Below are positions 12,723 to 54,000 of a DNA stretch of 54,253 bases, piece by piece. The notes beneath the pieces were generated by a model, which worked only from the letters and a program-made list of their open reading frames with translations, was not told the DNA's origin and searched no databases. The stretch is from a virus (taxonomy: Duplodnaviria; Caudoviricetes), in IMG/VR virus record IMGVR_UViG_3300025018_000183, positions 1-54,253 of that record, one strand, 5' to 3'. Numbering within the stretch: position 1 is the first letter of the stretch; each line of letters starts with the position of its first letter. A program made the translations under genes and the position numbers.

Positions 12723-13106
12723 ATGGAAACGAAAAATGATTTTAGCGGGAATAGTGAAACTAAGAACGTTGAAATTGACCTCAATCGGTTTATATCTATT
12801 CTCGATGAAAACCGTCGGTTAAGCGAAGCAAACATAAAGTATAGGGTTAATCGTCTCTATCAGTTTTATGATCATTTACTTCACATCTCACAGGTGATTG
12901 ATGAATATCGCATCTTCCCGCGTATATTCATTTCTGTCTATCTATATCTTCTATATGAATCATCAATTTGGTATATGACGTTGGCTGAACCGTCTACGAC
13001 ACAGGCGGGTTATATTTCAACAGTTATTGGGGCCGGCGCCGCCTGGTTCGGTTTGTATGCTGCGACTCGAGGAGACGGTAACCGTAAGAAACCAGAACGA
13101 GGCTAG
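12723..13106 (+). CDS. two-TM membrane protein
   Basis: GGAG RBS; RIFPRIF... and GAGAAWFGLY hydrophobic segments. Confidence 0.8.
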   Translation: METKNDFSGNSETKNVEIDLNRFISILDENRRLSEANIKYRVNRLYQFYDHLLHISQVIDEYRIFPRIFISVYLYLLYESSIWYMTLAEPSTTQAGYISTVIGAGAAWFGLYAATRGDGNRKKPERG

Positions 13107-13333
13107 ATGCGGCTTTGCAGCTCCTACAATGGAAACCATCTACGAATTCGGAAACCGCATCTAGCCTCATCTAGATGTCCTCGCGTAACCTATTGATTTC
13201 ATTACATATTTTATCGTTCGCACGTAACCTATTGATTTTGTTACAATAAATTAATTTCGCAGTTTCCATCACAAAACTATTGACAAAGCCGTTCTAGTGT
13301 GGTATAATAGTTTCAACAAATGGTAAAACACAC
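13091..13333 (+). repeat. full cassette: 85-nt four-box hairpin, twin IHF-like sites, promoter, leader
   Basis: gaggctagatgcgg/ccgcatctagcctc; TAACCTATTGATT at 13186 and 13225; TTGACA 13280, TATAAT 13303. Confidence 0.85.
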
Positions 13334-13344
13334 GTGAAATTTCA

Positions 13345-13599
13345 ATGATTCACATTCGTCAGAATATCAAACGTGTCACGCCCGACAAAGTACGAGTCGG
13401 GGATGTGATTGCATTTGGTTTGTCGGGTGTAAATCATAATTGTGTGATCGAGAAGATCACAAATAATGGTCGCGGCTATCAGTTTTATTGGAATAATCTG
13501 ACTGCTTGCGAATTCTATCATAACGAATCATTTGTGTGGATTGGGATTGGGATTGTTAATGAAAACCAAATTGAAGCCCCAAAAGACTACAGTCACTAA
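13345..13599 (+). CDS. early hypothetical protein
   Basis: first ORF after cassette promoter. Confidence 0.65.
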   Translation: MIHIRQNIKRVTPDKVRVGDVIAFGLSGVNHNCVIEKITNNGRGYQFYWNNLTACEFYHNESFVWIGIGIVNENQIEAPKDYSH

Positions 13600-14761
13600 G
13601 CTAACTATGCCAGAGAAGTTTGTGTATGATTTCTCCGACTGGCGTAATATGTCTGGTGCCGAATTTCATTCGCTGAAATTTGAAGCGATCAATTTCTATC
13701 GTCAGCATGTAAAGGCGGCGAATCTGTTTCTTGAAGCGTGGAAATGGATGAAAAAGAACGGATACAGCAAAAACGACATCGAGTTGTGCAAGAATGGAAT
13801 CGGTTATGGCGGATTCGATTCAACCGCTGCAATTCTGTGCAAGCTTCTGAATACTGGTTGTCCGGATTTCAATGTCAATGAGAACGTGTATTGGATGTCA
13901 AACCCGGATCGAACTAAGGAAATCTATCCTCTTAGTGAATATGTTCGAGCACGAGTGAACGACGGTATTGCTCTAGCAAAAAAACGCGTTGTGACGTCAT
14001 CAACTGATTCGGTGACGCGCCGCACGGTCTCTGTTCAAGATCGAATGATTGAACAGATTTCACCGTTGCTTGACGATCTCGAAGGTTTTATTGATGATTG
14101 GCGACGTGATATCGTCCAGATTAAGGACCTCGGCGCGTACGGTCGATTTGCGTCGTTTGATGTCAAGTTGTCATCCGCGCACGCTAAGCTGATTCGTAAT
14201 CACTTTATGCGAATGTACGAAGAAGCACTCGAGCTCTCGAAACGCAATGCTGCACCCGATTTGATTGAATCGTATGGGCATTTCAGTGCAAAGCAGCGGC
14301 GCGATTTCGTTAAGATTTACGCTGAAATCCTTTCAGCGTGTGATCTTGTTGCAGACGAAAAGAAGCAGCGGAAACCTCGCAGGAAGAAAGTTGTTCCAGT
14401 CGATAAGATTGTCGCTCGAGTGAAATATTGCCCAAAGGATGTCGATCTCGGTTTGGTTTCAATTCAACCGCAGGCAGTAGTTGGAAAAACGACCGTCTGG
14501 GTATACAATCGAAAATATCGAGTTCTGACGAAGTACGTTGCTTCTGAAGATGAAGTGCTTACTTTCAAGGGTACCACGATCCAGAACTACGATGAATCGC
14601 AGTCCGATTCGAAAAAGCTTCGGAAGCCAAATGAGATGCTTAAAGAATGGAATGCACTCACAAAAGTTAAGCGTAACAAATACCTTAGTTCAATCCGAAC
14701 TAAGACTATGAAAATCACTGGTCGAGTGAATGGCGATACCCTTCTCTTGAAGGCAGAATAA
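13559..14761 (+). CDS. conserved T4-like hypothetical protein
   Basis: 400-aa ORF; C-terminal FKGTTIQNYD...KKLRKP...GRVN pattern. Confidence 0.8.
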   Translation: MKTKLKPQKTTVTKLTMPEKFVYDFSDWRNMSGAEFHSLKFEAINFYRQHVKAANLFLEAWKWMKKNGYSKNDIELCKNGIGYGGFDSTAAILCKLLNTGCPDFNVNENVYWMSNPDRTKEIYPLSEYVRARVNDGIALAKKRVVTSSTDSVTRRTVSVQDRMIEQISPLLDDLEGFIDDWRRDIVQIKDLGAYGRFASFDVKLSSAHAKLIRNHFMRMYEEALELSKRNAAPDLIESYGHFSAKQRRDFVKIYAEILSACDLVADEKKQRKPRRKKVVPVDKIVARVKYCPKDVDLGLVSIQPQAVVGKTTVWVYNRKYRVLTKYVASEDEVLTFKGTTIQNYDESQSDSKKLRKPNEMLKEWNALTKVKRNKYLSSIRTKTMKITGRVNGDTLLLKAE

Positions 14762-14831
14762 CTAAGAGAAAGGCGAGGTTCGATTCAATGGGACGACTGA
14801 TTTATGAAAATTCGAATGATAGTTAAATGAT

Positions 14832-15395
14832 ATGCACTCTTCTCATTATTCATACGCGCAAAATCCTAAGTCTCTTAATGCTGCTGCTGAGTGGATTGTT
14901 GATAATCTAGTTTCTAAGTTCGCGGGTTATCATTACATCATTGGTTATAGTGGCATGTCGGGTATTTCGATTGCGACTATGGTTTCTCTGCACCTCTCAA
15001 ATCGTGATCTTGATTTTAGCATGTTCTATGTTAGAAAGGCAGGTGAAACACTGCATGGCTGTCCTAGAGAATATAACAAACGGATAATTGAAGTAATTAA
15101 TAATCCTGAAGTTCAATATGTCTGCACTTTCGTTGACGATTTTATTTCAACTGGTAAAACCATGGATTCTGTGAAGACTGCTTTCATTGACGAATTTGAT
15201 CATATTAGTGATATCATTTTTACGAATGCACTAACTGGCCCTGGGAACGAATTTAAAATTTTTACACGTGATAGTGTGCACGATGGGACAGGTAATTGTT
15301 TTAATCCTAACATTCACGAAGTACCAGCAAAATCTACCTTTCGCACTATCTTAGATAATGCCGAAGCTCAATTCCGTGAGGTGTTTAATCTATGA
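14832..15395 (+). CDS. phosphoribosyltransferase-fold protein
   Basis: PRPP-binding motif FVDDFISTGKT; VRKxxExxHG loop. Confidence 0.75.
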   Translation: MHSSHYSYAQNPKSLNAAAEWIVDNLVSKFAGYHYIIGYSGMSGISIATMVSLHLSNRDLDFSMFYVRKAGETLHGCPREYNKRIIEVINNPEVQYVCTFVDDFISTGKTMDSVKTAFIDEFDHISDIIFTNALTGPGNEFKIFTRDSVHDGTGNCFNPNIHEVPAKSTFRTILDNAEAQFREVFNL

Positions 15396-16120
15396 AAATC
15401 GATTCAAGATTTCATGATTTTTATGACAATGCAATTGCATTTGGTGTAGATAAAAAGATTCGTTATCATCGCGAAGTTCGCGGCCCATATTTTTATAGGG
15501 GCTCGCGGTATAGTGATCTAAATCGAAACGATAAAAATTACACTATTCCGATTCCAATGAACGATTTCGAATCAATTACAAGAGCGTACCGCCGATATCT
15601 TTATGGCGATGACATTGATCGAATTCTATATAAACGGAAACATTCATTTCAGTATGTGATTCGTAATTTGCTATTCATCGGTCAGCGTGTATTCTTCTGG
15701 TATATATCTACTCCCAACTACGCACATTGCACCAATTTCAAAAATCATAATAGACCAGTTGATGTATATACAACACCCGGCGAAAATACTGAGATAACGG
15801 ATCGTGTAAATTATGATAATTTCGATGTGCATATGTTATTCGATTCGCCACTAGTATTGTTTCAAGATATTAACTATAGACGATCACATATTACCAGCGA
15901 TCGTGGTAATTGGCGTGAATATCGGCGCGTAATCATGAATCCAATTTTAAGCGCAATCGGGTTTCAGCGACTAATGGATCCATTTGAGACTCGCCAGTTG
16001 ATCGAGAATACTGTCATATCGTTAAACTGTACTGAAGTGTCGAGCGACAATATCCCGAATGATTGTAAGATAACGAGCCATGGCTTTGATACGAAGCAAT
16101 CGTTTCGTCATCGTAAGTAA
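15392..16120 (+). CDS. hypothetical protein
   Basis: 242-aa ORF with GAGGTG RBS. Confidence 0.75.
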   Translation: MKIDSRFHDFYDNAIAFGVDKKIRYHREVRGPYFYRGSRYSDLNRNDKNYTIPIPMNDFESITRAYRRYLYGDDIDRILYKRKHSFQYVIRNLLFIGQRVFFWYISTPNYAHCTNFKNHNRPVDVYTTPGENTEITDRVNYDNFDVHMLFDSPLVLFQDINYRRSHITSDRGNWREYRRVIMNPILSAIGFQRLMDPFETRQLIENTVISLNCTEVSSDNIPNDCKITSHGFDTKQSFRHRK

Positions 16121-16141
16121 GTTAACACGGCGGTATATCAT

Positions 16142-16166
16142 AGGGGAGATATATCTCCCTTTCTTT
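16142..16166. terminator. terminator between convergent genes
   Basis: aggggagata/tatctccctt followed by T-rich tract. Confidence 0.7.
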
Positions 16167-16611
16167 ATATCGATTCTAAACGTCTCATTAATCTTTCAGC
16201 ACGATTCGTTACTTGACGATACCATCGAGAGTCACGGCCATGGATCGCAGCCTCTTTCCAATTATGCTGATTCAATGCGGCGTTCATATTTACGAATAAA
16301 CGCATTTTAGGTTTGCCTAAATTAAATATCATATTGATTAGAACATGCTTTGCAACTCTCGGCCATGTTTCAAAATCTTTATATAATGCGAAGGCCGACA
16401 TAATTGCAATATTTAGATCAGTTTCAAATACCGAATGTACACGATCAGTTAAAATTCTAGTACCCACACTCATATTCCACTCTGGGTCGTTCTTCGTGAC
16501 TAAGTGTCCAATGCCAAATGTCTTATTGTCAAGATGATCGTTGTATAAGTAATACACAACACCCTCATCATGAATAATTTCTTCTTTCAATTGCTCTCTA
16601 TCGATTGACAT
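16165..16611 (-). CDS. e: T4-type lysozyme (GH24 endolysin)
   Basis: HDEG...D...TFGIGHL, NMIFNLG, SRWYRQVTNRAERL; likely start MSIDRE. Confidence 0.9.
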   Translation of the reverse strand: MSIDREQLKEEIIHDEGVVYYLYNDHLDNKTFGIGHLVTKNDPEWNMSVGTRILTDRVHSVFETDLNIAIMSAFALYKDFETWPRVAKHVLINMIFNLGKPKMRLFVNMNAALNQHNWKEAAIHGRDSRWYRQVTNRAERLMRRLESI

Positions 16612-16633
16612 ACTTCGCTCCGTTTGATATAAT
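16605..16633 (+). promoter_or_regulatory. sigma70 promoter of DNA polymerase
   Basis: TTGACA-17nt-TATAAT. Confidence 0.8.
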
Positions 16634-16665
16634 AAACTGTTAATACTAAAAGGTACTTTTGCAAT

Positions 16666-19215
16666 ATGAGATCTGATTTTTACACGAATGTTTTTCAATA
16701 CGGTAATCATGTATTTCTCCGCGGTGTCGATAGTAATGGTAATCGTATTCAGCGCAAGATAAAGTATCAACCATATTTATTTATCGAGAAAGAATGCGAT
16801 GAGGGTTGGCGAACGCTTAACGGTGTAAACGTTTCGCAGAAACATTTCGATATGATATCTGACGCAAAGGCATACATCAAATCGTATAAAGATGTGTTAA
16901 CACTGTATGGGTCAGATCGTTGGGATTATGTATATCTACATGATGAATTTCGCGGCTGTAAACCGGATACCGATAAAATCAACGTCGTGTTTATCGACAT
17001 CGAAACGGAGTCCGACACTGGATTTCCTAATGTCGATCTAGCTGATAAAGGTATCTTATCGATTACAATGAAGAAGGGTGATTTATGTATTGCATTTGGT
17101 CTTAAAGAACTCGAGAAAGAAATTCCTAATGTATATTATGTACAGTGCAAAGACGAGCGCGACCTATTACAAAAGTTTCTTAACACTTGGATTAGCTTCG
17201 ATGTTGATGTTGTAACTGGTTGGAACACTGAATGGTTCGATATACCGTACATTATTAATCGTATGCGTCGTGTTCTTAGTGAAGAGCAGACGAAGACATT
17301 ATCACCATGGAATATTATTCGTGAATACACTGTCACGACAATGGGTCGCGAACAGAAGTCATACGAAATACGCGGTGTAGTTAATCTTGACTATCTCGCG
17401 ATCTATAAAAAGTTTCAACTCAAACCACGGGAATCGTATCGCTTAGGTGATATCGGCGAGGTTGAGTTGAATCAGTCGAAAGTTGACTACAGTGATTACA
17501 GTTCGCTGTCTGGATTATATCAAGATGATTTTAGGCTCTTCATCGAATACAATGTCGGTGACGTTTTACTTGTTGAGGAACTTGATAAGAAACTTGGATA
17601 CTTAAATCAGATATTTACACTTGCATACAATAGCGGTGTTAACTATGGTGATGCACTAACAACGCTAACGATCTGGGATACGACAATTCACAACGATCTT
17701 CACGACAAGCGTATCGTCGTTCCATTTCGTCGTTATAATAATTCATCGGATATTATTGAAGGCGGTTATGTAAAAGCGCCGATCACTGGTATGAGTCATT
17801 ATGTAATTGGGTTTGACCTCGATTCACTATACCCGCATCTCATTCAACAGTACAATATCTCGCCTGAAACTAGTGTATGCTGCGACGATAATCTATTTGA
17901 AATATCACACTCAAATCTCGAGGACTTGATACATAAGCGAGTTGACACATCAGTTCTAAAAAGAAAGAATGTATGCATGGCAGCAAACGGCCAATTTTAT
18001 CGAAAAGACGTTCGTGGATTCTTGCCTGTATTAATGGAGAAGATGTATAAGGATCGTAAAGAATTCAAGAACCGAATGCTCGAGCTCAAGAAACAATATG
18101 AAGAGACGAAGGACGAGAAGCTTAATCCCGAAATAACTCGCTGTAATAATATGCAAGGTGCTCTCAAAGTACTACTCAATTCTGCATATGGCGCAATTGC
18201 AAATCAATACTTTCGTTATTATCGCAGAGATAATGCTGAAGCGATTACAGTGTCGGGACAGCTATCGATTCGTTGGATTGAACGTAAAATGAATGAGTAT
18301 CTTAATAATGTACTAAAGACGAACGATATTGATTATGTCGTTGCATCAGACACCGACTCGATTTATGTATGTTTTCATGAGTTGGTAAAACGAGTATATC
18401 CCGATAAAAATACTGATGTGCATACGATCGTCGACTTTCTTGATAATGTAGTGAAGGAGAAGGTACTCGACTATATCAAAAAATCATACTATGAACTATA
18501 TGAATATATGAATGCGTTCGACCAAAAGATGAATATGAAACGTGAAATTATCAGTGACAAAGCAATTTGGACTGCCAAGAAACGTTACATTATGAACGTA
18601 TATGATGAAGAAGGAGTTCGTTATCACGAACCAAAGCTTAAGCTAATGGGTAGTGAAGCAATTCGTAGTTCAACACCAACCGCATGTCGCAAACGAATCA
18701 GGGAAACGATTAGGCTTATTATGAACAGTGATGAACCAACTGTTCAAGAATATATTTCAAAGTTTAGGTCAGAGTTCAAGACATTACCAATCGAGCAGAT
18801 TGCTTTTCCTCGTGGTGTAAATTTCATGACTACGAAAACAACTAGTACTGGTAAGACTGTCAGAGTTTCATGGAAAGATAAGAATACGTTATACAAGAAA
18901 GGCACGCCGATTCAGGTGAAAGCTGCTCTAATATATAATCAGATGCTAAAGAAACATGGCTTAGAAAATCGATATGAAACGATTCATACGGGTGAAAAGA
19001 TCAAGTTCGTTTATCTCAAAAAACCAAACCCAACTATGGATTCGGTGTTTGGTTTTGCACAAACATTACCAGACGAGTTCAATATTAAGAGTTACATTGA
19101 TTATGATCTACAGTTCACGAAAAGTTTCATTGATCCAATCACCGTTATTCTAAACGCGATCGGTTGGCATCATGAAAAACGCGCGACACTCGAGGATTTC
19201 TTTTTACAAAATTGA
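16666..19215 (+). CDS. 43: family B DNA polymerase (T4 gp43-like)
   Basis: DIET exo motif, DLDSLYPH, KVLLNSAYG, SDTDS, KKRY, C-terminal LEDFF clamp motif. Confidence 0.97.
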   Translation: MRSDFYTNVFQYGNHVFLRGVDSNGNRIQRKIKYQPYLFIEKECDEGWRTLNGVNVSQKHFDMISDAKAYIKSYKDVLTLYGSDRWDYVYLHDEFRGCKPDTDKINVVFIDIETESDTGFPNVDLADKGILSITMKKGDLCIAFGLKELEKEIPNVYYVQCKDERDLLQKFLNTWISFDVDVVTGWNTEWFDIPYIINRMRRVLSEEQTKTLSPWNIIREYTVTTMGREQKSYEIRGVVNLDYLAIYKKFQLKPRESYRLGDIGEVELNQSKVDYSDYSSLSGLYQDDFRLFIEYNVGDVLLVEELDKKLGYLNQIFTLAYNSGVNYGDALTTLTIWDTTIHNDLHDKRIVVPFRRYNNSSDIIEGGYVKAPITGMSHYVIGFDLDSLYPHLIQQYNISPETSVCCDDNLFEISHSNLEDLIHKRVDTSVLKRKNVCMAANGQFYRKDVRGFLPVLMEKMYKDRKEFKNRMLELKKQYEETKDEKLNPEITRCNNMQGALKVLLNSAYGAIANQYFRYYRRDNAEAITVSGQLSIRWIERKMNEYLNNVLKTNDIDYVVASDTDSIYVCFHELVKRVYPDKNTDVHTIVDFLDNVVKEKVLDYIKKSYYELYEYMNAFDQKMNMKREIISDKAIWTAKKRYIMNVYDEEGVRYHEPKLKLMGSEAIRSSTPTACRKRIRETIRLIMNSDEPTVQEYISKFRSEFKTLPIEQIAFPRGVNFMTTKTTSTGKTVRVSWKDKNTLYKKGTPIQVKAALIYNQMLKKHGLENRYETIHTGEKIKFVYLKKPNPTMDSVFGFAQTLPDEFNIKSYIDYDLQFTKSFIDPITVILNAIGWHHEKRATLEDFFLQN

Positions 19216-19274
19216 CATTCCATCTATCACTGATATACAATAAACAATAGGAACATAACTAGGAGACACAACAT

Positions 19275-20351
19275 ATGAGTTCGAAGTTACTCGATAAACT
19301 AAAGAAGAATTCAACTTCAAAGCTTTCATCGGTTCTTGATGAATCGATTCTTTACTCGGAAGTAAAGCACGTTGCAACAGATATACCTGTCTTTAATATT
19401 GCGCTATCAGGGAGTCTTGATGGTGGCTTGACTTCAGGATTAACAATGTTTGCTGGACCATCTAGACACTTTAAGACTGCATTCAGTCTTTTATGCGCAA
19501 AAGCATATCTTGATAAACACAAGGACGCTGTTCTATTATTCTACGATTCTGAGTTTGGTTCGCCGCAGGCGTACTTTCGTTCATTTGGTATCGACCCAGG
19601 ACGTGTATATCATACGCCAATCGTCGACATTGAAGGATTGAAGTTTGATATCATGGCACAACTACAGAATATTAACCGCGGCGATCATGTCATTATCGTA
19701 ATCGATTCAATCGGCAATGTCGCATCAAAGAAAGAAGTCGACGACGCGATCGACCAAAAGTCTGTTGCTGATATGACACGTGCAAAACAGCTTAAATCGT
19801 TGTTCCGTATGGTCACTCCGCATCTAACACTGAAAGACATTCCGATGATCGCGGTTAATCATACGTATAAAGAACAGGGATTGTATCCTAAGGATGTCGT
19901 CTCTGGTGGTACTGGTAGTTATTACTCAAGTTCAAATATCTTTGTCATTGGACGTCGGCAAGAAAAGACTGGCACTGAAGTAACAGGATACGACTTCATT
20001 ATTCGTATCGAGAAATCTCGATATACACGTGAAGGCGCAAAGATTCCTGTCACCGTTACATTTAGCGGTGGTATTAATAAGTGGTCAGGTCTACTTGAAA
20101 TTGCGATGGAAGGTGGTTTTGTAATCAAGCCATCTAACGGTTGGTATTCGCGAATAGATCGTGAAACAGCTGAAGTTGAAAATAAAAAGTATCGTGAAAA
20201 AGATACATATAACGATGAGTTCTGGAATCCAATTCTCAACTCATATAAGTTCCGTGAATATGTAAGAAAACGGTATTCTATTTGTGACGATCTGATTATG
20301 CGGGAAACTGATGATGTGAGTATTACTACTGCGGTGGATAACGATGAGTGA
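19275..20351 (+). CDS. uvsX: UvsX RecA-like recombinase
   Basis: AGPSRHFKT, YDSEFG, DMTRAK, SGGTG. Confidence 0.95.
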   Translation: MSSKLLDKLKKNSTSKLSSVLDESILYSEVKHVATDIPVFNIALSGSLDGGLTSGLTMFAGPSRHFKTAFSLLCAKAYLDKHKDAVLLFYDSEFGSPQAYFRSFGIDPGRVYHTPIVDIEGLKFDIMAQLQNINRGDHVIIVIDSIGNVASKKEVDDAIDQKSVADMTRAKQLKSLFRMVTPHLTLKDIPMIAVNHTYKEQGLYPKDVVSGGTGSYYSSSNIFVIGRRQEKTGTEVTGYDFIIRIEKSRYTREGAKIPVTVTFSGGINKWSGLLEIAMEGGFVIKPSNGWYSRIDRETAEVENKKYREKDTYNDEFWNPILNSYKFREYVRKRYSICDDLIMRETDDVSITTAVDNDE

Positions 20352-23263: not shown

Positions 23264-23271
23264 CCATATAG

Positions 23272-43777: not shown

Positions 43778-43798
43778 TAATAATAATAAAGGGTATGT

Positions 43799-46227: not shown

Positions 46228-46250
46228 TAGCTCGTGTTATGATTATCACG

Positions 46251-46371
46251 TAACTTATTGATTTTATTATAGTTTCGATATATCTCATGTAACCTATTGA
46301 TTTTGTTCAGAAAATTATTTTCACAAATTTATCATAAAACTATTGACAAAGCGGTCTGGATGTGATAGAAT
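46251..46371 (+). promoter_or_regulatory. cassette copy: twin IHF-like sites plus promoter
   Basis: TAACTTATTGATT, TAACCTATTGATT; TTGACA 46343, TAGAAT 46366. Confidence 0.8.
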
Positions 46372-46482
46372 GGTATCTATAAATTCAATGTCATTAACTA
46401 CTAATGATGTTAATGCTTTCATTTCAAAGGTTGCTCGTAATTGGTTTAATGATCGGTTAAACAGTGAATAAGGAATTTAATT

Positions 46483-46749
46483 ATGAATGATGAAGTGCAC
46501 CCTATTCTGCCGATTCATAGTCGTGTCGAGACCGAATATGGTTTTGGCACTGTTATCGAATATGAAATCATTTGGGACTGGGACAGATATGGTAATGATC
46601 ACAAGATTAATCGTTCCTGTCAGGTTAGGAAAGATGAGATCTCCTATATTCTCCAACTCAGACATCGTATTAGACTTGACTCGCGTGACAGATGGCCATT
46701 CCCATACGATCCAGTGATGTTTGGTTCTGATCTATCCACTGATGTTTGA
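46483..46749 (+). CDS. hypothetical protein
   Basis: AAGGA RBS. Confidence 0.6.
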   Translation: MNDEVHPILPIHSRVETEYGFGTVIEYEIIWDWDRYGNDHKINRSCQVRKDEISYILQLRHRIRLDSRDRWPFPYDPVMFGSDLSTDV

Positions 46750-46779
46750 TTCTGATCTAAAAAAAAAAGGTAAGCTAAA

Positions 46780-47088
46780 ATGAAATTACTTCGTAATATG
46801 TTTATCATCGCCTTTCTTGTCGTATTAAGCGGTTGCGTGGTTGTCACCGAAAGTGACATACCGACGAATACATTCACTTTGCAATTGAGCACTTTCGGGG
46901 ACCCATATTCAATTATTATGTGGAATCGTCAGTATTGTGGCGACTTACGATATGTGCGTTACAATCAACCTCGGCGATGCTTTTATTACAACCGACATGA
47001 TCCGCGTTACCATTATGGGAACTGTGCGATCGTCGTTGACCGTTTTGGTCGTTATACGAAGGACTGTCGCCCACGATATTATCATTAG
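46780..47088 (+). CDS. lipoprotein
   Basis: signal peptide with LSGC lipobox. Confidence 0.7.
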   Translation: MKLLRNMFIIAFLVVLSGCVVVTESDIPTNTFTLQLSTFGDPYSIIMWNRQYCGDLRYVRYNQPRRCFYYNRHDPRYHYGNCAIVVDRFGRYTKDCRPRYYH

Positions 47089-47193
47089 ATGGGCTGATTA
47101 TTGTGCTCATCAGTTTCAAGTAAATCAAATTTACTTCACGGTGGAAATCAAACATCTTCGTCGCGAAGTTGAGAGAGTGACAACAGTGTATTC

Positions 47194-47325
47194 TAAGTAG
47201 TTGATTTTGTTCTAGAACACTCTAAGTGGTTGATTTTATTCAGAAATTATTTTCGTATTTTCGTGAAAAAAATATTGACATAGCAGATCGGATGTGGTAT
47301 AATAGTATCAACAAATCGGAAAACG
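47194..47325 (+). promoter_or_regulatory. cassette copy: twin IHF-like sites, promoter, leader
   Basis: TAAGTAGTTGATT, TAAGTGGTTGATT; TTGACA 47275, TATAAT 47298. Confidence 0.8.
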
Positions 47326-47375
47326 CATATGTAATTGAAGCGAACTTGTATCTGACGATTGATTAAGGTCAATTC

Positions 47376-47678
47376 ATGATGAATATTGAAAAACTGAAGA
47401 CTTATATTAATGGGGATGCGAAGACTGATGTTGCATATCGATCAGCGTTTTCGCCGTTCCGCGGATGTGAGCCGGTCAGCGGCCGTGCTAGCAAGTATGT
47501 TGAGGGTTATTATGCTGGTCTGCTGAATGCGGTGTTTCGTGTAATCGATAGGAATGAAGAAAAAACTGGGTCACAGATTGCACTTGAAATTGAAAAACTT
47601 TTCAATACGATTGACGGTATTTTGAGCGCAGAAGAGGAAGAGGCTAAGGCTAATGAACAAGGTTTTTGTGACGAGTGA
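47376..47678 (+). CDS. early hypothetical protein
   Basis: first ORF after cassette promoter. Confidence 0.7.
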   Translation: MMNIEKLKTYINGDAKTDVAYRSAFSPFRGCEPVSGRASKYVEGYYAGLLNAVFRVIDRNEEKTGSQIALEIEKLFNTIDGILSAEEEEAKANEQGFCDE

Positions 47679-48237
47679 TCTGCACTTTGGTCATCGTAAT
47701 ATTTTAAAGTTCAATCCGCGAACCCGGCCGTATGAAACGGTCGAGAAAATGGATGATGCTTTGATTTCAAACTGGAATGCCGTCGTTAGTCCTAGTGATG
47801 ATGTATTCAATCTTGGTGATTTGTCGTTTCATCAGAATTTCAATGTAACACTTGAAATTCTGGAGCGGTTGAACGGTCGACATCACTTGATTCTCGGTAA
47901 TCATGATCGGCTTCTTCGTAAGCCGCGATATCGACTGGCGGCTGAGAATTATCTTGAATCGATACAGGACTATGTTGAACTAAATGTGAATAAACGGAAG
48001 ATTGTAATGTGCCATTATTCGATGCGTGTTTGGAATTGCATGCATCATGGTGCAATTATGCTCTACGGACATAGTCATGGTAGCTTGACTGCTGTCGGGC
48101 GTTCAATGGATGTTGGTATTGATTCGTCTGATATGAATTCATATCAGCGACCATTTTTTCTCGACGATGTAATCAATTTTCTTTCATTGAAGAAAATTGC
48201 TATTCATGATCACCATACGAACGGTGATAGTGTATAA
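47653..48237 (+). CDS. calcineurin-like phosphoesterase
   Basis: SDLHFGH, LGD, GNHD, YGHSH. Confidence 0.9.
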   Translation: MNKVFVTSDLHFGHRNILKFNPRTRPYETVEKMDDALISNWNAVVSPSDDVFNLGDLSFHQNFNVTLEILERLNGRHHLILGNHDRLLRKPRYRLAAENYLESIQDYVELNVNKRKIVMCHYSMRVWNCMHHGAIMLYGHSHGSLTAVGRSMDVGIDSSDMNSYQRPFFLDDVINFLSLKKIAIHDHHTNGDSV

Positions 48238-48351
48238 TTGAATTTTAACAAGATCAAAGCCGAATATGAAAAGATTATGGCTTTGGTTTTATTGCGTTGA
48301 TCGCGTTATATAGAAAATGATTTGTTACCACTAATCGGTGAGGGGTTTTAA

Positions 48352-48804
48352 ATGAGTGTTTCGGAAAATAAGCTTATTCTTTTGCGCGGGTTGCCTGGGT
48401 CTGGTAAGTCAACCTTCGCTGAATTTCTTGCTCAGTTTCTCTTTCATTCATGTGATAGTGCTAATGTCAAGGAGTTTAGTACCGATTCGTATTTCGTAAA
48501 CGCCGATGGCGAATACGTGTTTAAGGCTGAGAATCTCAGGCGTAATCATTACAAATGCCAGACGGCTGTTCGTGATTTTTTCATTGGTAACTCGGCGACA
48601 CCACATCGCATTCATAATGTTGCGATTGTTCATAATACGAGTACCACCGAATTTGAAGTAGATGTGTACAAGAAGATCGCTGACGATTTTGGTGCACAGT
48701 TCATTAGTTTGATTGTCGAGAATCGCCACGGTAATAAGAACGTGCACGCCGTTCCTAAGGAAGCAATTGAGCGCATAACGAAGCGGTTCACATTCACACT
48801 CTAA
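48352..48804 (+). CDS. P-loop kinase (AAA_33, polynucleotide-kinase-like)
   Basis: RGLPGSGKST, NVHAVP. Confidence 0.85.
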   Translation: MSVSENKLILLRGLPGSGKSTFAEFLAQFLFHSCDSANVKEFSTDSYFVNADGEYVFKAENLRRNHYKCQTAVRDFFIGNSATPHRIHNVAIVHNTSTTEFEVDVYKKIADDFGAQFISLIVENRHGNKNVHAVPKEAIERITKRFTFTL

Positions 48805-48818
48805 AATGGACCATTGTT

Positions 48819-49787
48819 ATGAAGAAATTAAATTTTGACGATTTAGTTACATCGCGATTAGTGCAGATGCGCCGTCACGATACGTTGCCGCTTACTCTTT
48901 ATAAATATCATCGTAAAGTGTTTTATCGCGGCTTGTTTGAGCAAGACGAACGTCTACGATATGCACGTGGTATTGTTCTTGACGACGATGGGAACGTTAT
49001 TGTCCGGCCGTTCTATAAGATTTACAATTATACTGAGAACGGCGCGGGAACGGATTGGTTAGATTCCGATACTGTGTATGCTGTTCGCAAGCGAAACGGT
49101 TTCATGTTATGCGCAACCCGTTATAACAACGAAGTTTTGTATACTTCAACTGGAACTTTTGATAGTGATTATGTACGTCTTGGGAAGTCAATTGTTGAGA
49201 AGCATGTAGACGTAAATCAATTCTTGGAAAACAGAACGTATATCTTCGAAGTGTGCCATGAGAGTGATCCGCATATCATTCAAGAAAATTGCGAATTGTA
49301 TTTGATTGGTGTGTGTTCAGTTTATTCGAATAGTAATTGGCCATTGATTGACTGTTTAAATTACGAATACGATTCAATTTCATTACAGCCGAATTTATGG
49401 ACTTCAGGATTTGGTGTAGACGATTATGTGATGATGACTTTCGGCCAACTTAAGTCTGTTGTGAAGAACGTTACACACGAAGGCTTCGTGGTTTATCGTC
49501 TTGAAGACAATGCTGAAGTTCGCGAAAGCATGATTAAAATAAAGACTCCGTATTACTTAACTACGAAGTTTCTAACTCGTGCCAAGAAACGTTTGTATAA
49601 TGAAGATGGTTCGATTAAAGTGAAGTATGCAAAACAATATCTCGATGAGGAATATTATGATCTGATTGAATATATTTCACACAATCATTCTACATTCGGA
49701 TTATACGACGAACAAGAACGAATTCGTTGCGTGCGTGAATTCGTTAATAGCCAATGGGAGTATTGTTATGAAAATCTAGAAACTTGA
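48819..49787 (+). CDS. rnlA: RNA ligase 1-like
   Basis: ARGIV, RPFYKIYN, KRNG, TYIFE, EGFVV, KIKTPYY. Confidence 0.88.
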   Translation: MKKLNFDDLVTSRLVQMRRHDTLPLTLYKYHRKVFYRGLFEQDERLRYARGIVLDDDGNVIVRPFYKIYNYTENGAGTDWLDSDTVYAVRKRNGFMLCATRYNNEVLYTSTGTFDSDYVRLGKSIVEKHVDVNQFLENRTYIFEVCHESDPHIIQENCELYLIGVCSVYSNSNWPLIDCLNYEYDSISLQPNLWTSGFGVDDYVMMTFGQLKSVVKNVTHEGFVVYRLEDNAEVRESMIKIKTPYYLTTKFLTRAKKRLYNEDGSIKVKYAKQYLDEEYYDLIEYISHNHSTFGLYDEQERIRCVREFVNSQWEYCYENLET

Positions 49788-49962
49788 ACCGATTGACGAA
49801 TATACTAGAGAATCTATAGTATGACTGTTTGTTTGATATATCGTCGTCACCATTGATATGGTGGTGGCTGTGGGATACATTGTGTAAGATTGTGGCGGGG
49901 ATGATTTACTCTGATTATAGAGAATCCCGATAAAATAAAACTTTATAAAAGGAGAAGGCAAT

Positions 49963-50352
49963 ATGATGAATCTATTTAGTAGTATTAAGAATATTTTTAC
50001 TCGTAATACATTTTCGCAGAATACACTCACTGATTATAATCGATATCGTTATTACAACGAACTGAATGGACCAGTCACCGATATCTTTGCGTTTAGTCTA
50101 CCGGGTGGTACTGAGGGCAATGCTCACGTATCATTTGAGATTACACGGAAATATAATGTTCTTAAGGTTAACATCGATGATCTAACCGCAAATATTCGCC
50201 CGTTTGTCGGTGTCACAGATATTCTCAATGGCATTAATACGCATGAACGCGTATTTAAAACAACTCTTGAGCCTAATACAATACTCGATAGCATTAAATT
50301 CAATAACGGCGTTCTTTATGTTTACATCGTTTACCCATCGACAGACAATTAA
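49963..50352 (+). CDS. divergent small heat-shock (Hsp20-like) protein
   Basis: LPG motif and C-terminal FNNGVLYV; AAGGAG RBS. Confidence 0.55.
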   Translation: MMNLFSSIKNIFTRNTFSQNTLTDYNRYRYYNELNGPVTDIFAFSLPGGTEGNAHVSFEITRKYNVLKVNIDDLTANIRPFVGVTDILNGINTHERVFKTTLEPNTILDSIKFNNGVLYVYIVYPSTDN

Positions 50353-50362
50353 TAGTATCATT

Positions 50363-50430
50363 GCTTCTATAGTCGAGTCGGTATAATATTGGATTCGTAA
50401 TCCAATGACATCAGTACGATTCTGTATTCA
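50363..50430 (+). pseudogene. isolated tRNA-Thr(CGT) relic
   Basis: attgga-ttCGTaa-tccaat anticodon arm, degenerate T-arm, no acceptor 3' strand. Confidence 0.4.
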
Positions 50431-50469
50431 TATACATATGCGCAATTGACCATTGATACTACAACCTCC

Positions 50470-50698
50470 TCTAGAAGCCCATCCAGACGATATACCGAAG
50501 TGGATATTGAATTGTCCCAGTTAACTGGAATATCGTCTGGATGGGCTTCTAGATGTCCTCGCGTAACCTATTGATTTTATTGCTATATCTGTAACCTATT
50601 GATTTTATTCGTAAAAATAATTTTCACATATTCATCATAAAACTATTGACAACGCCGTTCTAGTGTGGTATAATGGTATCGTCAAATGGAAAAACACA
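50470..50698 (+). repeat. full cassette: 84-nt hairpin, twin IHF-like sites, promoter, leader
   Basis: tctagaagcccatccagacgatat/atatcgtctggatgggcttctaga; TAACCTATTGATT x2; TTGACA 50646, TATAAT 50669. Confidence 0.88.
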
Positions 50699-50712
50699 CT
50701 GGCGATTATATC

Positions 50713-51024
50713 ATGGATTACGCACGGCTTCAGGACGAGGTTTTTAGTATCATTGTGGATTTCGTACAAAAATCCTCGCTGGTTAAAGCTATTGATTGCG
50801 GTCTAGACGATCGCGCCGGTTGGGAAATTTATATCTCCCCCAATAAGGATGTCCTGTTCGTTCATCAGAACAGAGTTCGTGATCTGCGATACTACGGTGG
50901 ATTCGAATATGTTGATGATATGTATATATGCACAATTGGCGACTACGTCTTCTTCGAAGACAGTGATAGCCGAGTCGCCGCGGCAATCGAATCAGTCATT
51001 GAATCTGGTATACTGGCGAATTGA
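50713..51024 (+). CDS. early hypothetical protein, paralog of 8012-8332
   Basis: CGLDDRAG, DLRYYGGF, GDYVF. Confidence 0.8.
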   Translation: MDYARLQDEVFSIIVDFVQKSSLVKAIDCGLDDRAGWEIYISPNKDVLFVHQNRVRDLRYYGGFEYVDDMYICTIGDYVFFEDSDSRVAAAIESVIESGILAN

Positions 51025-51091
51025 TTTGTGTTAATTCAAAGTAAACGCGAACAGATTTCCGCGCTTTTTACAAATGTGAGGTAATACAACT

Positions 51092-52084
51092 ATGGCACAT
51101 CAGGTTGAAACAATGGCATATGCTGGCGAAGTTCCATGGCACGGACTTGGCGTTCGAGTCACAGAAGGTTTGACACCAGATGAAATGATGGTCGAGGCTG
51201 GACTCGACTGGGAAGTCGAGAAGCGTGAGATGTTTTATATCGACTCAAATGGTAATCAGAAGCGCGGCGGTGATCAGACTGCATTGGTTCGATCGTCTGA
51301 TGGTATGTTTCTTGATACTGTATCCGATATGTGGAACCCGGTGCAGAACAGAGACGCGTTTAACTTCTTCGACGAATACACTCGTGCAGGTGGTATGGAA
51401 ATGCATACTGCTGGTTCGTTGCGTGACGGTAAGGTTATCTGGGCTCTCGCGAAGGTGAACGATTCGTTTGCGCTGTTCGGTGGAAAGGACAAGGTTGAAT
51501 CATATCTCTTGCTTTCAAATCCGCATCAGTTTGGTCGTGGCGTCGATATTCGATTCACACCGATTCGCGTTGTATGCAACAACACTTTGTCGTTTTCGTT
51601 GAATAGAAAGGCCACGCTAGCTATTTCTCTGAATCACCGTTCTGAGTTTGATGCGGAGAAGGCGCGCGAAGCCCTCTCGGAAGCACATCAGAAGATGACA
51701 GAATATAAGGAGATGTCTGAATTCCTTGCTTCAAAGAAGTTTAATGAAAGTAAGTTGTTTGAATATTTCAATCATGTCTTTCCCCGGGCTGATCGTGGTT
51801 CGAATAGCGTTAAGCACCAGGAAATGATGGACGCATTTCGCAACAAGGACAAGAAGATTGTTTCACGAAACGCGATTCTTGCAGCCGAAACTCTCGAGGA
51901 ACAGCCCGGCGCTGAGTATGGTAAAGGAACTTGGTGGCAGGCGTATAACACAGTTACGTTTATGACCAACCATCTCATGGGCCGTAATTCTGACACTCGT
52001 ATGCAGTCGCTGTGGTTCGGTCAGAACAAGAATCGCAACATCGATGCACTCGGCGCAGCAATTGAATTTGCCAACGCTGCGTAA
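51092..52084 (+). CDS. DUF932 (TIGR03299-like) protein
   Basis: PWHGLG, AGLDWEV, PVQN, TPIRVVCNNT. Confidence 0.88.
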   Translation: MAHQVETMAYAGEVPWHGLGVRVTEGLTPDEMMVEAGLDWEVEKREMFYIDSNGNQKRGGDQTALVRSSDGMFLDTVSDMWNPVQNRDAFNFFDEYTRAGGMEMHTAGSLRDGKVIWALAKVNDSFALFGGKDKVESYLLLSNPHQFGRGVDIRFTPIRVVCNNTLSFSLNRKATLAISLNHRSEFDAEKAREALSEAHQKMTEYKEMSEFLASKKFNESKLFEYFNHVFPRADRGSNSVKHQEMMDAFRNKDKKIVSRNAILAAETLEEQPGAEYGKGTWWQAYNTVTFMTNHLMGRNSDTRMQSLWFGQNKNRNIDALGAAIEFANAA

Positions 52085-52101
52085 ACTATAACCCAACAAT
52101 C

Positions 52102-52129
52102 GAAAGAGAGAGATATCTCTCTCTTTCTT
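52102..52129 (+). terminator. palindromic terminator
   Basis: gaaagagagagat/atctctctctttc. Confidence 0.65.
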
Positions 52130-52146
52130 GTATGCGAAGGAAATAC

Positions 52147-52359
52147 ATGGAGAACTCGATGATAGATCAAATTATACAGCTAGGAAACAAACCAAACATC
52201 ACGTTATTTGAAGCTATTGTTGAATATTGCGAGCAGAATGATCTTGATATTGAATGTATGGCGCCAGCATTGAAGAAAAATCCAAACATAATGTGTCGGC
52301 TACGAGAAGAGGCTGAGGAACTCAACTATCTTGAGAAGAGATCAAGATTGCCATTATGA
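52147..52359 (+). CDS. 33: late-transcription coactivator gp33
   Basis: EAIVEYCE...EAEELNYL...LP; 33-59-32 gene order. Confidence 0.8.
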   Translation: MENSMIDQIIQLGNKPNITLFEAIVEYCEQNDLDIECMAPALKKNPNIMCRLREEAEELNYLEKRSRLPL

Positions 52360-52940
52360 AACCGTTTGATGCATACCGAATGTTTCAGGCAATGAAACTG
52401 CATTACACTTCACCAACATATTCATACCGAAAATATAACGGTAGGACTCGTGTATCAATTGATAGTTTTGAAAAACGATCGGACAAATATTTCTATTCCA
52501 AACTATCAAAGCACGAAGAACCATTTTGGTTCATGGTAATAGCACTGTTTCACAGACCAACCACGTGGATCGGTAATTTACTATCAGATGAAAATGAAGA
52601 AATGTATCGCAAACATAAAGGTGTTCTAACTGCGCTCGAATATACATTCAAGACTGATATGGCGAGATACGATTCATTAGATGACGCTTTTTTACTAAGA
52701 AGCGAATATGGATATCCAACAATATATCAACACTATCGTGAAAAGAAAGTACATGCTGAAACAATTGTGATATGTAATCGTATATTGACATTGTTTCCTT
52801 ATTGGAATACAATAATAACTGATATCGTCATTTGGCCTAGAGATCAATACTTAATCTCTAAGTATGGCGAATTCATCGATATCGATTTGCATAAATATAA
52901 CGACATTATGCGCCAAGTTGATAATCAAATATACTCTTAA
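52356..52940 (+). CDS. 59: helicase loader gp59
   Basis: AMKLHY...Y.Y.KYNG...FEKRSDKYF. Confidence 0.88.
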   Translation: MKPFDAYRMFQAMKLHYTSPTYSYRKYNGRTRVSIDSFEKRSDKYFYSKLSKHEEPFWFMVIALFHRPTTWIGNLLSDENEEMYRKHKGVLTALEYTFKTDMARYDSLDDAFLLRSEYGYPTIYQHYREKKVHAETIVICNRILTLFPYWNTIITDIVIWPRDQYLISKYGEFIDIDLHKYNDIMRQVDNQIYS

Positions 52941-52957
52941 CATAAAGGAAAAACAAA

Positions 52958-53857
52958 ATGACTACATTTGCAGATCTAAAGAATAGCCGTAAGTCGCAGT
53001 TCGATAAACTAAGAGACGGAGCTGAATCTATTAATTCAAAGAGCGGTGGTCAAGATGACGATCGATTCTGGAAGCCAACAATTGATGCAGCAGGTAATGG
53101 TTCAGCTATCATTCGTTTTCTTCCAGCACCGGCTGGTGAAGATCTTCCGTTCGTACGTTATTGGGATCATGGATTCAAGGGTCCTGGTGGTTGGTACATT
53201 GAAAACTCATTGACTTCAATCGGCCAGGAAGACCCAGTAACGCAGTACAATTCTCGACTATGGAATGAGGACGGCTCTGAACAGGCGAAGCGTCAAGCTC
53301 GCGACCAGAAGAGACGCCTCCATTACATCTCAAATATTCTGGTTATATCTGATCCAGGAAACCCATCAAATGATGGTAAGGTTTTCTTGTATAGATACGG
53401 TAAGAAAATCTTCGATATGATTAATAGTGCAATGAATCCAGAATTCGACGACATTAAGCCAATAAATCCGTTTGATATGTGGGAAGGCGCGAATTTTAGA
53501 CTGCGTGCTCGAAACGTTGAAGGTTATCGTAATTACGACAAGTCAACCTTTGATAGCTCAACCGCAATTTCAAAGATTGACGATGAACTTGAGCATATCT
53601 GGAGTCTTACTTATCAGTTGCAGCCGTTTGTCGAGCCAAACAACTTCAAGACTTACGCCGTACTCCAATCGCGTTTGAATCGTGTTCTTGGTTTGAATAC
53701 GAATGATAACGGGAATGACGATGCAACAACATCAACAGCATCCCCCGCATGGGAACCACCGACCACCGAATCGAAAGCCGAAAATCAGCAGCCACCGGCG
53801 ATCGACGATGACGACGACGACTCGTTGGCATTCTTCCAGGGGTTGGCTAATAAGTAA
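52958..53857 (+). CDS. 32: ssDNA-binding protein gp32
   Basis: GNGSAIIRFLP, WYIENS, GANF, acidic tail. Confidence 0.95.
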   Translation: MTTFADLKNSRKSQFDKLRDGAESINSKSGGQDDDRFWKPTIDAAGNGSAIIRFLPAPAGEDLPFVRYWDHGFKGPGGWYIENSLTSIGQEDPVTQYNSRLWNEDGSEQAKRQARDQKRRLHYISNILVISDPGNPSNDGKVFLYRYGKKIFDMINSAMNPEFDDIKPINPFDMWEGANFRLRARNVEGYRNYDKSTFDSSTAISKIDDELEHIWSLTYQLQPFVEPNNFKTYAVLQSRLNRVLGLNTNDNGNDDATTSTASPAWEPPTTESKAENQQPPAIDDDDDDSLAFFQGLANK

Positions 53858-54000
53858 CTAGATGATGTCTAGACGGTATTTCAAAATTGACTGATGGATT
53901 CGTCAACTGAGATTGAAATACTGTCTAGACATCTCTTCTAGAGGCTCGCTAAGCTATTGATTTTGTTGAGATTTATTTCAAGACTAAGCTATTGATTTTA
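53857..54000 (+). repeat. promoterless cassette: 86-nt hairpin plus twin IHF-like sites
   Basis: gatgtctagacggtatttcaa/ttgaaatactgtctagacatc; TAAGCTATTGATT x2; no TTGACA follows. Confidence 0.8.

Follow-up and report, generated by a model that had tools for sequence, protein, structure and literature searches.

We analysed a 54,253-base viral contig (IMG/VR record IMGVR_UViG_3300025018_000183, hereafter the window), a linear fragment estimated to be about 32% complete, in which four long hairpins carrying TCTAGA-type boxes are each followed by a conserved pair of IHF-type boxes and, in three cases, by a consensus sigma70 promoter. We infer, with a probability of roughly 0.65, that these hairpins are the stem-loop module of a cassette of the PeSL (promoter-early stem-loop) type that marks transcription-unit boundaries in a T4-like phage. 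That the module acts through a specific RNA-level step, namely 3'-end formation or RNase III processing, is a tentative proposal to which we give slightly less than even odds. As a whole, the element is best read as a putative elaborated PeSL-type cassette that combines a terminator or processing site with a promoter and IHF-type boxes.

According to the available text of PMC2839356 and PMC4122927, PeSLs occur in T4-type phages (RB49/phi1, T4/PST, and KVP40/nt-1) as intergenic, multicopy units composed of a strong sigma70-like promoter, AT-rich DNA on the upstream side of its -35 hexamer, and, further upstream, a stem-loop serving as a terminator or attenuator of incoming transcription; homologous recombination between the units deletes, inserts, or circularizes the intervening genes (Arbiol et al.; Comeau et al.), and patches of <50 bp are quoted in PMC2839356 as enough for T4 recombination. 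The cassette architecture, its repetition, the compensatory pairing of the stems, and the consensus matches described below were all observed in the window. Besides, the window is a fragment of a T4-like phage because it encodes a family-B DNA polymerase (46% identity to cyanophage gp43), a gp32 gene (52958-53857; Pfam PF08804 match), and matches to UvsX, the DnaB-like gp41 helicase, and the helicase loader (gp59).

Four long hairpins with compensated stems

The hairpins and a partial copy are as follows.

13091-13175, plus strand: hairpin H1, 85 nt; the open reading frame (ORF) 12687-13106 runs into its 5' arm, with an overlap that covers the final codons and the TAG stop (13104-13106).
23272-23357, plus strand: hairpin H2, 86 nt; four exact TCTAGA boxes, a 26-bp perfect stem, and a 10-bp apical stem.
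50470-50553, plus strand: hairpin H3, 84 nt; a 24-bp perfect stem with compensated inner boxes (TCCAGA/TCTGGA).
53857-53942, plus strand: hairpin H4, 86 nt; immediately past the TAA codon that ends the gp32 gene (52958-53857).
7780-7835, plus strand: hairpin remnant, nonfolding; TCTAGATG is kept on the 5' side and CTCTAGATGTC on the 3' side.

A preliminary description of this DNA had reported the four hairpins, with lengths of 84 to 86 nt, and RNA folding of 101-nt stretches, each compared with 200 shuffles, bore this out. The folds reached -31.9 kcal/mol in H1 (z = -3.9), -56.1 kcal/mol in H2 (z = -11.4), -52.7 kcal/mol in H3 (z = -9.6), and -42.7 kcal/mol in H4 (z = -6.7), and in each case 0 of 200 shuffles was as good. 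Among the 67 inverted repeats of the window, the hairpins rank I1, I2, I3, and I13. Their main stems are almost all Watson-Crick (26 + 10 bp in H2, 24 bp in H3, 5 + 21 bp in H4, and 3 + 14 + 3 bp in H1), with a single G.U pair in the stem of H4; the outer stem of H1 is weakened on the plus strand by C.A mismatches. The spacers between the arms measure 28 to 34 nt, and 36 nt in H1.

The stems were also said to differ in sequence while keeping their pairing, and we found the same. When the four copies were anchored without gaps on the inner box, pairing was kept at offsets -5 to +14, and 13 of these 20 offsets showed two to four different pair types across the four hairpins. Indeed, the arms differ between copies at about half of the positions, with compensation, and compensated changes occur even inside the inner box (TCCAGA/TCTGGA in H3 and GCTAGA/TCTAGC in H1). 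These compensatory changes, in the nonbox stem as well as in the inner box, favor pairing over recognition of duplex DNA. The anchored pair count was used, together with a covariance model built from H2 alone, in place of an alignment of the four hairpins by MAFFT and RNAalifold, which misaligned the 3' arms and returned a meaningless 5-pair structure. Scanned over the window, the H2 model retrieved only H1, H3, and H4 (E values of 3e-6 to 9e-4); the next match (E = 0.05) was an unrelated hairpin at 38780-38840. This box-less long hairpin (38783-38837, plus strand; 18-nt arms, 94% complementary, no TCTAGA) lies 31 nt past the stop of ORF 36857-38752 and directly precedes a promoter-like site at 38845-38873 on the plus strand (TTAACT-17-TATAAT with TG), so that the two form a box-less stem-loop/promoter pair.

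TCTAGA occurs 24 times in the window against 10.9 +/- 3.1 expected copies, and the excess corresponds to 12 copies in the hairpins and the remnant at 7780-7835. The four-box layout with partly degenerate boxes was confirmed: all four boxes are exact in H2, the outer ones are exact in H3 with the inner ones compensated, and the boxes read ACTAGA/TCTAGA/TCTAGA/TCTAGA in H4 and ACCAGA/GCTAGA/TCTAGC/TCTAGA in H1. From start to start, the boxes are 10 to 13 bp apart. A U tract is absent at all four hairpins, as had been noted; the 3' flanks are TGTCCTCGCG at H1 and H3, TGTCATCGCG at H2, and GGCTCGCTAA at H4. In Rfam, no family reached its gathering threshold on the hairpins; all that was matched, below threshold, were the miRNA precursors bantam (30 bits versus 61) and mir-1422 (27.7 bits versus 60).

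Three of the four hairpins overlap a stop codon or start 0 to 8 nt past one, in agreement with the preliminary description. The upstream ORFs end at 13106 (the TAG lies within the inner box of H1), 23263, and 53857, and H2 begins 8 nt past the stop of an epimerase gene (22235-23263). H3 begins 35 nt after a weak tRNA-like match at 50363-50434. H4 marks a convergent junction with a minus-strand ORF (54010-54252) running in from the window end, and it is followed by a pair of IHF-type boxes and no sigma70 promoter. The tRNA-like Rfam match at 50363-50434 (29.1 bits) and another at 3039-3124 (32.8 bits) both immediately precede the terminator or hairpin slot of a cassette (50470 and 3140, respectively).

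The partial copy at 7780-7835 is a decayed hairpin remnant at the equivalent position of a cassette. Its description as a partial copy was not confirmed: its end motifs are kept, but it does not fold (z = +1.2; 181 of 200 shuffles were as good) and was missed by the H2 model. Regarding strand, H1 (13085-13185) folds 15 kcal/mol better on the minus strand than on the plus strand (-46.6 versus -31.9 kcal/mol), because three C.A mismatches on the plus strand become G.U pairs on the minus strand, whereas H2 to H4 favor the plus strand by merely 2 to 4 kcal/mol. In H1, it is the arm shared with the coding region of ORF 12687-13106 that has mutated.

The hairpins are the 5' module of a repeated promoter cassette

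The preliminary description implicitly treated the hairpins as isolated elements. This did not hold, as each of them is joined to a longer conserved cassette of about 230 to 250 bp in its full form, in which the upstream stop codon is followed by the 84- to 86-nt hairpin, 6 to 9 nt, two IHF-type boxes, an AT-rich UP-like tract, a promoter, a leader, and a small early ORF. On the other hand, the link to PeSLs that it had drawn was supported: in this T4-like phage, IHF-type boxes follow four of four hairpins and a consensus sigma70 promoter follows three of them. The promoters are listed here.

13280-13308, plus strand: promoter of the H1 cassette, TTGACA-17-TATAAT with TG; a leader follows, then an ORF start at 13345.
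23447-23475, plus strand: promoter of the H2 cassette, TTGACA-17-TAGAAT; ORF start at 23510.
50646-50674, plus strand: H3-cassette promoter, TTGACA-17-TATAAT with TG; the ORF behind it begins at 50686 or 50713.
3310-3338, plus strand: promoter of a hairpin-less cassette, same class.
7938-7966, plus strand: promoter of the decayed-hairpin cassette, same class.
8732-8760, plus strand: promoter and leader only, without boxes or hairpin, same class.
46343-46371, plus strand: promoter of a hairpin-less cassette, same class.
47275-47303, plus strand: promoter of a hairpin-less cassette, same class.
41230-41258, plus strand: related promoter with a single degenerate box upstream.

All nine promoters (3310, 7938, 8732, 13280, 23447, 41230, 46343, 47275, and 50646) belong to one class on the plus strand, with 11 to 12 of 12 hexamer positions matched, and seven of the nine share the IHF-type boxes, the AT tract, the spacer motifs, and the leader. 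Their general form is TTGACA-N17-(TG)-TAtAAT, in which the spacer usually ends in TG-N and the -10 hexamer is TATAAT or TAGAAT. Past the second IHF-type box, an AT-rich tract of about 30 nt and then the promoter were found at seven of eight box pairs. The tract is conserved and of the ATTATTTTCACAAATTTATCATAAAACTA type; thus, both the AT-rich region and the strong sigma70-like promoter of PeSLs are present, with the exception of H4, which has no promoter.

A conserved, ATCAACAAATGGAAAAACAC-like leader lies 3' of the -10 hexamer and may be a signal at the RNA level or in the initial transcribed region. In the form (A)TCAACAAAT(G/C)G(N)AAAAC(A)C it is common to the cassettes (e.g., 13309-13344, 23476-23509, and 50675-50712); it is not consistently coding, with ATG in some copies and ATC in others, and several of the downstream starts have no obvious Shine-Dalgarno sequence. 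The downstream ORFs begin 30 to 70 nt past the -10 hexamer and are mostly small, without family matches. Over about 160 nt the cassettes are 62 to 80% identical, with exact runs of up to 41 nt, and 30 nt are identical between H1 and H3.

A stem-loop upstream of the promoter and after a stop codon, as in PeSLs, was found at H1 to H3 and, in the form of a small hairpin, at 3140, and is absent at 46343 and 47275. The small hairpin is ordinary and terminator-like, with a T run (3140-3153), and it occupies the hairpin slot of the 3310 cassette, suggesting that the slot is where transcripts end. Two more small hairpins of terminator-like form, sharing one sequence type, lie on the plus strand at 16142-16161 (AGGGGAGATATATCTCCCTT) and 52105-52122 (AGAGAGAGATATCTCTCT). 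Each precedes a T-rich run, and the ORFs before them end at 16120 and 52084, so that conventional terminators, too, are in use in this phage. The T4 late-promoter motif TATAAATA gave 12 matches in the window against 6.6 expected, 10 of them on the plus strand. A late promoter as an antisense source was rejected, since no minus-strand match to TATAAATA lies near any hairpin.

Tandem IHF-type boxes

Every hairpin is adjoined on its 3' side by two tandem boxes, which begin 9 nt from the 3' outer box at H1, H2, and H3 and 6 nt from it at H4. Eight such pairs were found.

13186-13239, minus strand: boxes of the H1 cassette, the first degenerate (TTGATTTC) and the second exact (AAAATCAATAGGTTA).
23368-23409, minus strand: boxes of the H2 cassette, the first degenerate and the second exact.
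50564-50606, minus strand: boxes of the H3 cassette, both exact.
53950-53999, minus strand: boxes after H4, both exact (AAAATCAATAGCTTA).
3215-3267, minus strand: boxes of a hairpin-less cassette in the tRNA region, preceded by the small terminator and T run at 3140-3153.
7846-7899, minus strand: boxes of the decayed-hairpin cassette.
46251-46304, minus strand: boxes of a hairpin-less cassette, 23 nt past the stop of a GMP-reductase-family gene (45187-46227).
47194-47237, minus strand: boxes of a hairpin-less cassette.

Each box spans 15 nt and reads (G/C)TAA-N4-TTGATTTT-RTT on the plus strand, or AAAATCAA-N4-TTA on the minus strand. The motif AAAATCAANNNNTTA has 14 exact copies that share a single orientation, where shuffles would give 0.21; these and two degenerate boxes make up the eight pairs, four of which carry a long hairpin. 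The variable positions of the box coincide exactly with the N4 of the IHF consensus WATCAANNNNTTR, and a match to WATCAANNNNTTR with an A/T-rich 5' flank was found in 14 of 14 exact boxes. Most simply, therefore, the boxes are candidate sites for host IHF. The window encodes no HU/IHF homologue (PF00216) of the phage's own.

Other readings were tried. As -35 elements of extra promoters the boxes were rejected, no suitable -10 hexamer being present at 16 to 18 nt; a weak upstream TTGATA-17-TATCAT exists in some copies only. A MetJ- or TrpR-like operator reading of GTCTAGAC was dropped as incomplete. The TAA-N4-TTGATTTT box also occurs as intergenic tandem or inverted pairs in unrelated viral contigs (L146, L171, L132, L102, L104, L116/L137/L142, L161, and L125), and at L161 and L137 the arms of a palindrome resembling a terminator consist of it. 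Such recurrence in unrelated phages is consistent with the boxes being a generic host-factor site of the IHF type, in use by many phages.

A model for the cassette and points against it

In the proposed mechanism, the hairpin would form in the transcript arriving from the upstream unit and would define or insulate its 3' end, either by attenuation or, more likely, by RNase III cleavage of the 21- to 36-bp duplex or by a block to 3' exonucleases, so that read-through would be kept off the next promoter. The classical substrate of RNase III is an uninterrupted RNA duplex at least about two helical turns long, a length that the predicted stems of H2 to H4 (21 to 36 bp) provide, and a 3' hairpin blocks exonucleases. 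The near-perfect palindrome could act likewise on antisense transcripts, as at the convergent junction behind gp32. Indeed, H4 closes a 54-kb co-directional block at this junction with no promoter behind it, which supports the reading as a transcript end. With spacers of 28 to 36 nt, co-transcriptional folding of RNA should be easier than cruciform extrusion. Host IHF would then bind both boxes, whose centers lie roughly 83 and 111 to 123 bp upstream of the start site, bend the DNA, and stimulate the strong early promoter. As with PeSLs, the direct cassette repeats might be substrates for homologous recombination by the phage; module shuffling, if any, would be a by-product rather than a site-specific reaction at the hairpin.

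Several observations weigh against this model. The hairpins have no U tract of the kind found at intrinsic terminators (a GC-rich stem-loop followed by a U tract), and none of them appeared in a terminator scan of positions 1-20000 and 36000-54253. Since ordinary small terminators exist at 3140, 16142, and 52105, the long hairpins form a distinct class, and termination alone leaves their purpose unexplained. Besides, G.U pairs are nearly lacking in the stems, an unusual trait for a structure selected purely as RNA, and with H1 favoring the minus strand and H2 to H4 slightly favoring the plus strand there is no consistent strand signal. The 3' outer box and its flank TCTAGATGTC are kept where the pairing partner has been lost (H1 and the 7780 remnant), pointing to some sequence-specific recognition, and the conservation of stem boxes 10 to 13 nt apart is unexplained by RNA-end formation. 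Three hairpin-less cassettes (3310, 46343, and 47275) presumably work without a hairpin. Finally, the boxes are assigned to IHF by their consensus match. These misfits leave room for a protein that reads the TCTAGA boxes, in RNA or in DNA.

Comparison with known systems

The cassette shares with PeSLs a T4-type phage genome, an intergenic position, many direct repeats, a stem-loop just past the upstream stop, an AT-rich tract upstream of the -35 element, a near-consensus sigma70 promoter, a small early ORF behind it, and copies similar enough for homologous recombination. It differs from them in its stem-loop, which measures 84 to 86 nt, with stems of about 20 to 36 bp (about 21 bp in H1), and is four to eight times longer than the PeSL hairpins in the available descriptions, which are short G-run/C-run terminator hairpins. 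Here the stem-loop also contains four TCTAGA-type boxes 10 to 13 nt apart and lacks a T tract, is optional (four of eight box pairs), and flanks core replication blocks, whereas PeSLs lie in ORFan-rich regions. Furthermore, two tandem IHF-consensus boxes separate the stem-loop from the promoter; the term "IHF" has 0 occurrences in the available text of PMC2839356, and no such boxes are described in that of PMC4122927.

As for RNA processing, the comparable system is that of the RNase III hairpins of phage T7. This comparison concerns long, intergenic hairpins without a U tract that would protect the upstream mRNA by leaving a stem at its 3' end. The T7 hairpins lie between early genes, and their internal loops direct a single cleavage; no new promoter comes after them, unlike in the present cassettes. 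A precedent for IHF acting at an early promoter, that of lambda pL, was reportedly provided by Giladi et al. in 1998. There too, IHF-consensus sites stand several helical turns upstream of a strong sigma70 early promoter with AT-rich upstream DNA, but the candidate sites found here are tandem, occur at eight loci, and belong to a lytic T4-like phage.

Palindromes with IHF sites are also known from bacterial chromosomes. In E. coli, the BIME/RIP elements consist of palindromic units, contain an IHF site, and lie at gene boundaries. The Correia repeat-enclosed elements of Neisseria, found at such boundaries as well, unite an inverted repeat that is transcribed with a site of the IHF type and with promoter function, and their hairpin is a target of RNase III according to the available text of PMC2649163. 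Both kinds of element hold their IHF site inside the pair of inverted repeats and exist as mobile or amplified units of nearly identical sequence. Here the boxes are placed outside the hairpin, and the copies show compensated divergence.

PeSL cassettes are the only dedicated "linker" proposed for the modular shuffling of T4-type phages and have been described in enterobacterial and vibrio phages. The window would add an elaborate version, in which a four-box hairpin that is long and compensated is combined with a phased pair of IHF-consensus sites, an extended -10 promoter close to perfect, and a conserved leader. Should IHF indeed bind, a host nucleoid protein would be tied to the early transcription of a T4-like phage; literature searches combining IHF with T4-like early promoters returned no relevant report. 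In addition, perfect stems of 24 to 36 bp without U tracts offer a natural test case for distinguishing terminators, RNase III sites, and DNA structures in phage genomes, and the cassette offers a ready annotation rule for early transcription units in this lineage.

Alternative explanations

The preliminary description favored attC-like sites. In such a reading, the hairpins would fold in single-stranded or cruciform DNA and be cut and joined by a recombinase or nuclease encoded elsewhere, which would move gene blocks. Like integron attC sites, the hairpins have inverted repeats with two box pairs around a variable center, conserve structure over sequence, lie just past stop codons, and fall in a similar size range. 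Their near-pure Watson-Crick stems and lack of a consistent strand preference look as if both DNA strands mattered, and the IHF-type sites beside them are reminiscent of recombination complexes. The hairpin ends, however, are TCTAGA or variants of it in four of four cases and not the GTTRRRY core and inverse core RYYYAAC of the attC consensus. In attC sites, extrahelical bases in the folded strand set the choice of strand; the 26- and 24-bp stems of H2 and H3 have none, and the bulges of H1 and H4 are at unshared positions. No recombinase gene had been seen in the window, and searches for tyrosine, Y1/HUH, and serine recombinase domains (PF00589, PF01797, and PF00239) agreed with this, although a recombinase could lie outside, as the window is about 32% of the genome. 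The hairpin is always joined to the boxes of the cassette, with a strong promoter of its own in three of four cases, and the same cassette also exists without a hairpin; besides, central spacers of 28 to 36 nt would disfavor cruciform extrusion. Nor did the proposed shuffling of accessory modules fit the gene content. The bracketed blocks comprise many genes, including the core replication genes gp43-UvsX-gp41 and gp59-gp32, and because these are essential, excision of the blocks would be lethal. We therefore regard attC-like or other structure-specific recombination sites as very improbable. A related possibility is a device at the DNA level, in which the four-box palindrome and the two phased IHF-type sites would together make a structure-specific entry point, the hairpin being extruded on single-stranded recombination or replication intermediates, held by an IHF-bent scaffold, and recognized by a phage nuclease or recombinase encoded outside the fragment. 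It draws on what RNA-end formation leaves unexplained, namely the nearly G.U-free stems, the lack of strand preference, the conserved boxes one turn apart, and the fixed phasing to the IHF-type boxes. We consider it quite improbable; if true, a lytic T4-like phage would possess an integron-like or origin-like system exchanging or priming whole transcription units.

An array of duplex-DNA operators, in which a dimeric regulator of phage or host origin binds the four TCTAGA palindromes, arranged in two pairs at spacings of about one helical turn, and, together with IHF bending, switches the early promoter on or off (e.g., for shut-off), would account for the sequence conservation of the boxes and their 10- to 13-bp periodicity. 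It would also account for the fixed interval (9, 9, 9, and 6 nt) that separates the first IHF-type box from the 3' outer box, the 30 nt shared by H1 and H3, and the retention of the 3' outer box where pairing is lost. Such an array does not predict, however, that nonbox positions vary yet stay complementary within each copy, or that nonpalindromic changes of the inner box are compensated in H3 and H1; H4 has a hairpin and IHF-type boxes with no promoter to regulate, and three cassettes have no hairpin. On balance, an operator array appears unlikely. Insertion of miniature inverted-repeat transposable elements or Correia-like mobile elements beside pre-existing promoter cassettes is suggested by the long terminal inverted repeats, the similar length, and the dispersed copies, and Correia elements likewise join inverted repeats, promoters, IHF sites, and RNase III targets (available text of PMC2649163). 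We give this reading hardly any credence: near-identical copies and target-site duplications, the marks of such elements, were not found, as the copies share only the boxes, unlike recent transposition products, and no duplication is visible at the flanks of H2, H3, and H4. All copies have one fixed position and orientation relative to the IHF-type boxes, no transposase domain was found in the window by the three domain searches above, and no comparable element was found elsewhere (24 pattern loci, and 569 kb of relatives scanned with the H2 model). The co-occurrence of a palindrome, IHF-type sites, an AT-rich tract, and a strong promoter might also suggest an unwinding and priming site or a pac-like site, the replication or packaging signal that the preliminary description had offered as its alternative, and T4 origins do use promoter transcripts as primers. 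Yet at least four to five copies lie within 54 kb, the AT tract and boxes also occur without a hairpin, and packaging in T4-type phages is a sequence-independent headful process. GC skew was positive in all 27 bins along the window, so no origin-like switch is seen, and an origin or packaging signal is thus extremely unlikely. The reading that we retain is the stem-loop module of a PeSL-type cassette.

Search for relatives

The phage appears to represent a lineage without a close relative in the collections searched. Megablast and blastn against GenBank phages gave no match. The gp32 relatives have at most 59% identity, and the IHF-type box is absent from 80 of 80 of their loci; the gp43 relatives have at most 54% protein identity, and the nearest four are without comparable repeats. 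Synteny with the nearest relatives is restricted to gp43-UvsX-gp41, the only collinear genes. The covariance-model check that the preliminary description had called for, run with H2 alone, recovered the other three hairpins in the window and returned 0 matches in 40 of the 118 gp32 and gp43 loci (569 kb).

Pattern searches likewise revealed, among the matches listed, no relative with the cassette or the hairpin. The hairpin/box junction had 0 matches in viral contigs, and the four-box hairpin pattern matched 24 loci there, none of which is a comparable long hairpin. The box-plus-promoter pattern had 0 matches in metagenome contigs and 2 chance matches in genome contigs, and a looser version of it matched at least 110 loci in viral contigs. 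When eight cassette stretches (seven cassettes and the H4 unit) were compared by blastn with 373 loci (3.3 Mb), no similarity beyond the motif was seen among the matches listed. The 16-mer box was found at no fewer than 119 loci of viral contigs, and among the matches listed all belong to unrelated phages.

Other features of the window

All long ORFs with family matches are on the plus strand, and many small ORFs have no family match. ARAGORN identified 21 tRNA genes clustered at 950-7116 on the plus strand. Within this region, a 426-amino-acid protein (5121-6401, plus strand) has matches in PHROG 850 ("RNA-binding protein") and in Pfam (DUF2828/DUF7788), in addition to a weak one to VWA, and sub-threshold Rfam matches to YrlA (Y RNA-like) at 3522-3644 and 4583-4646 overlap tRNA genes.

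In the replication-gene neighborhood, a set of sugar-nucleotide genes (22235-29040, plus strand) comprises an NAD-dependent epimerase/dehydratase (22235-23263), a methyltransferase (27006-27650), and a cytidylyltransferase (27712-29040), and it may serve the modification of DNA or surface sugars. An RNA-repair-like set on the plus strand (47653-49787) consists of a phosphoesterase, a polynucleotide-kinase-like ATPase, and an Rnl1-type RNA ligase; a phosphatase-like ORF at 8822-9511 (plus strand) is grouped with it, and PhoH (43799-44536) and the GMP-reductase/IMPDH-family gene (45187-46227) lie upstream of it.

A permuted two-piece transfer-messenger RNA (tmRNA) gene lies at 11507-11773 on the plus strand (Rfam RF04321, 93.3 bits against a gathering score of 47), and ARAGORN likewise predicted a permuted tmRNA at 11477-11864 with the tag peptide AVNDDNFEYALAA. 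Because such permuted forms are typically those of alphaproteobacteria, cyanobacteria, and some betaproteobacteria, the gene may hint at the host of the phage.

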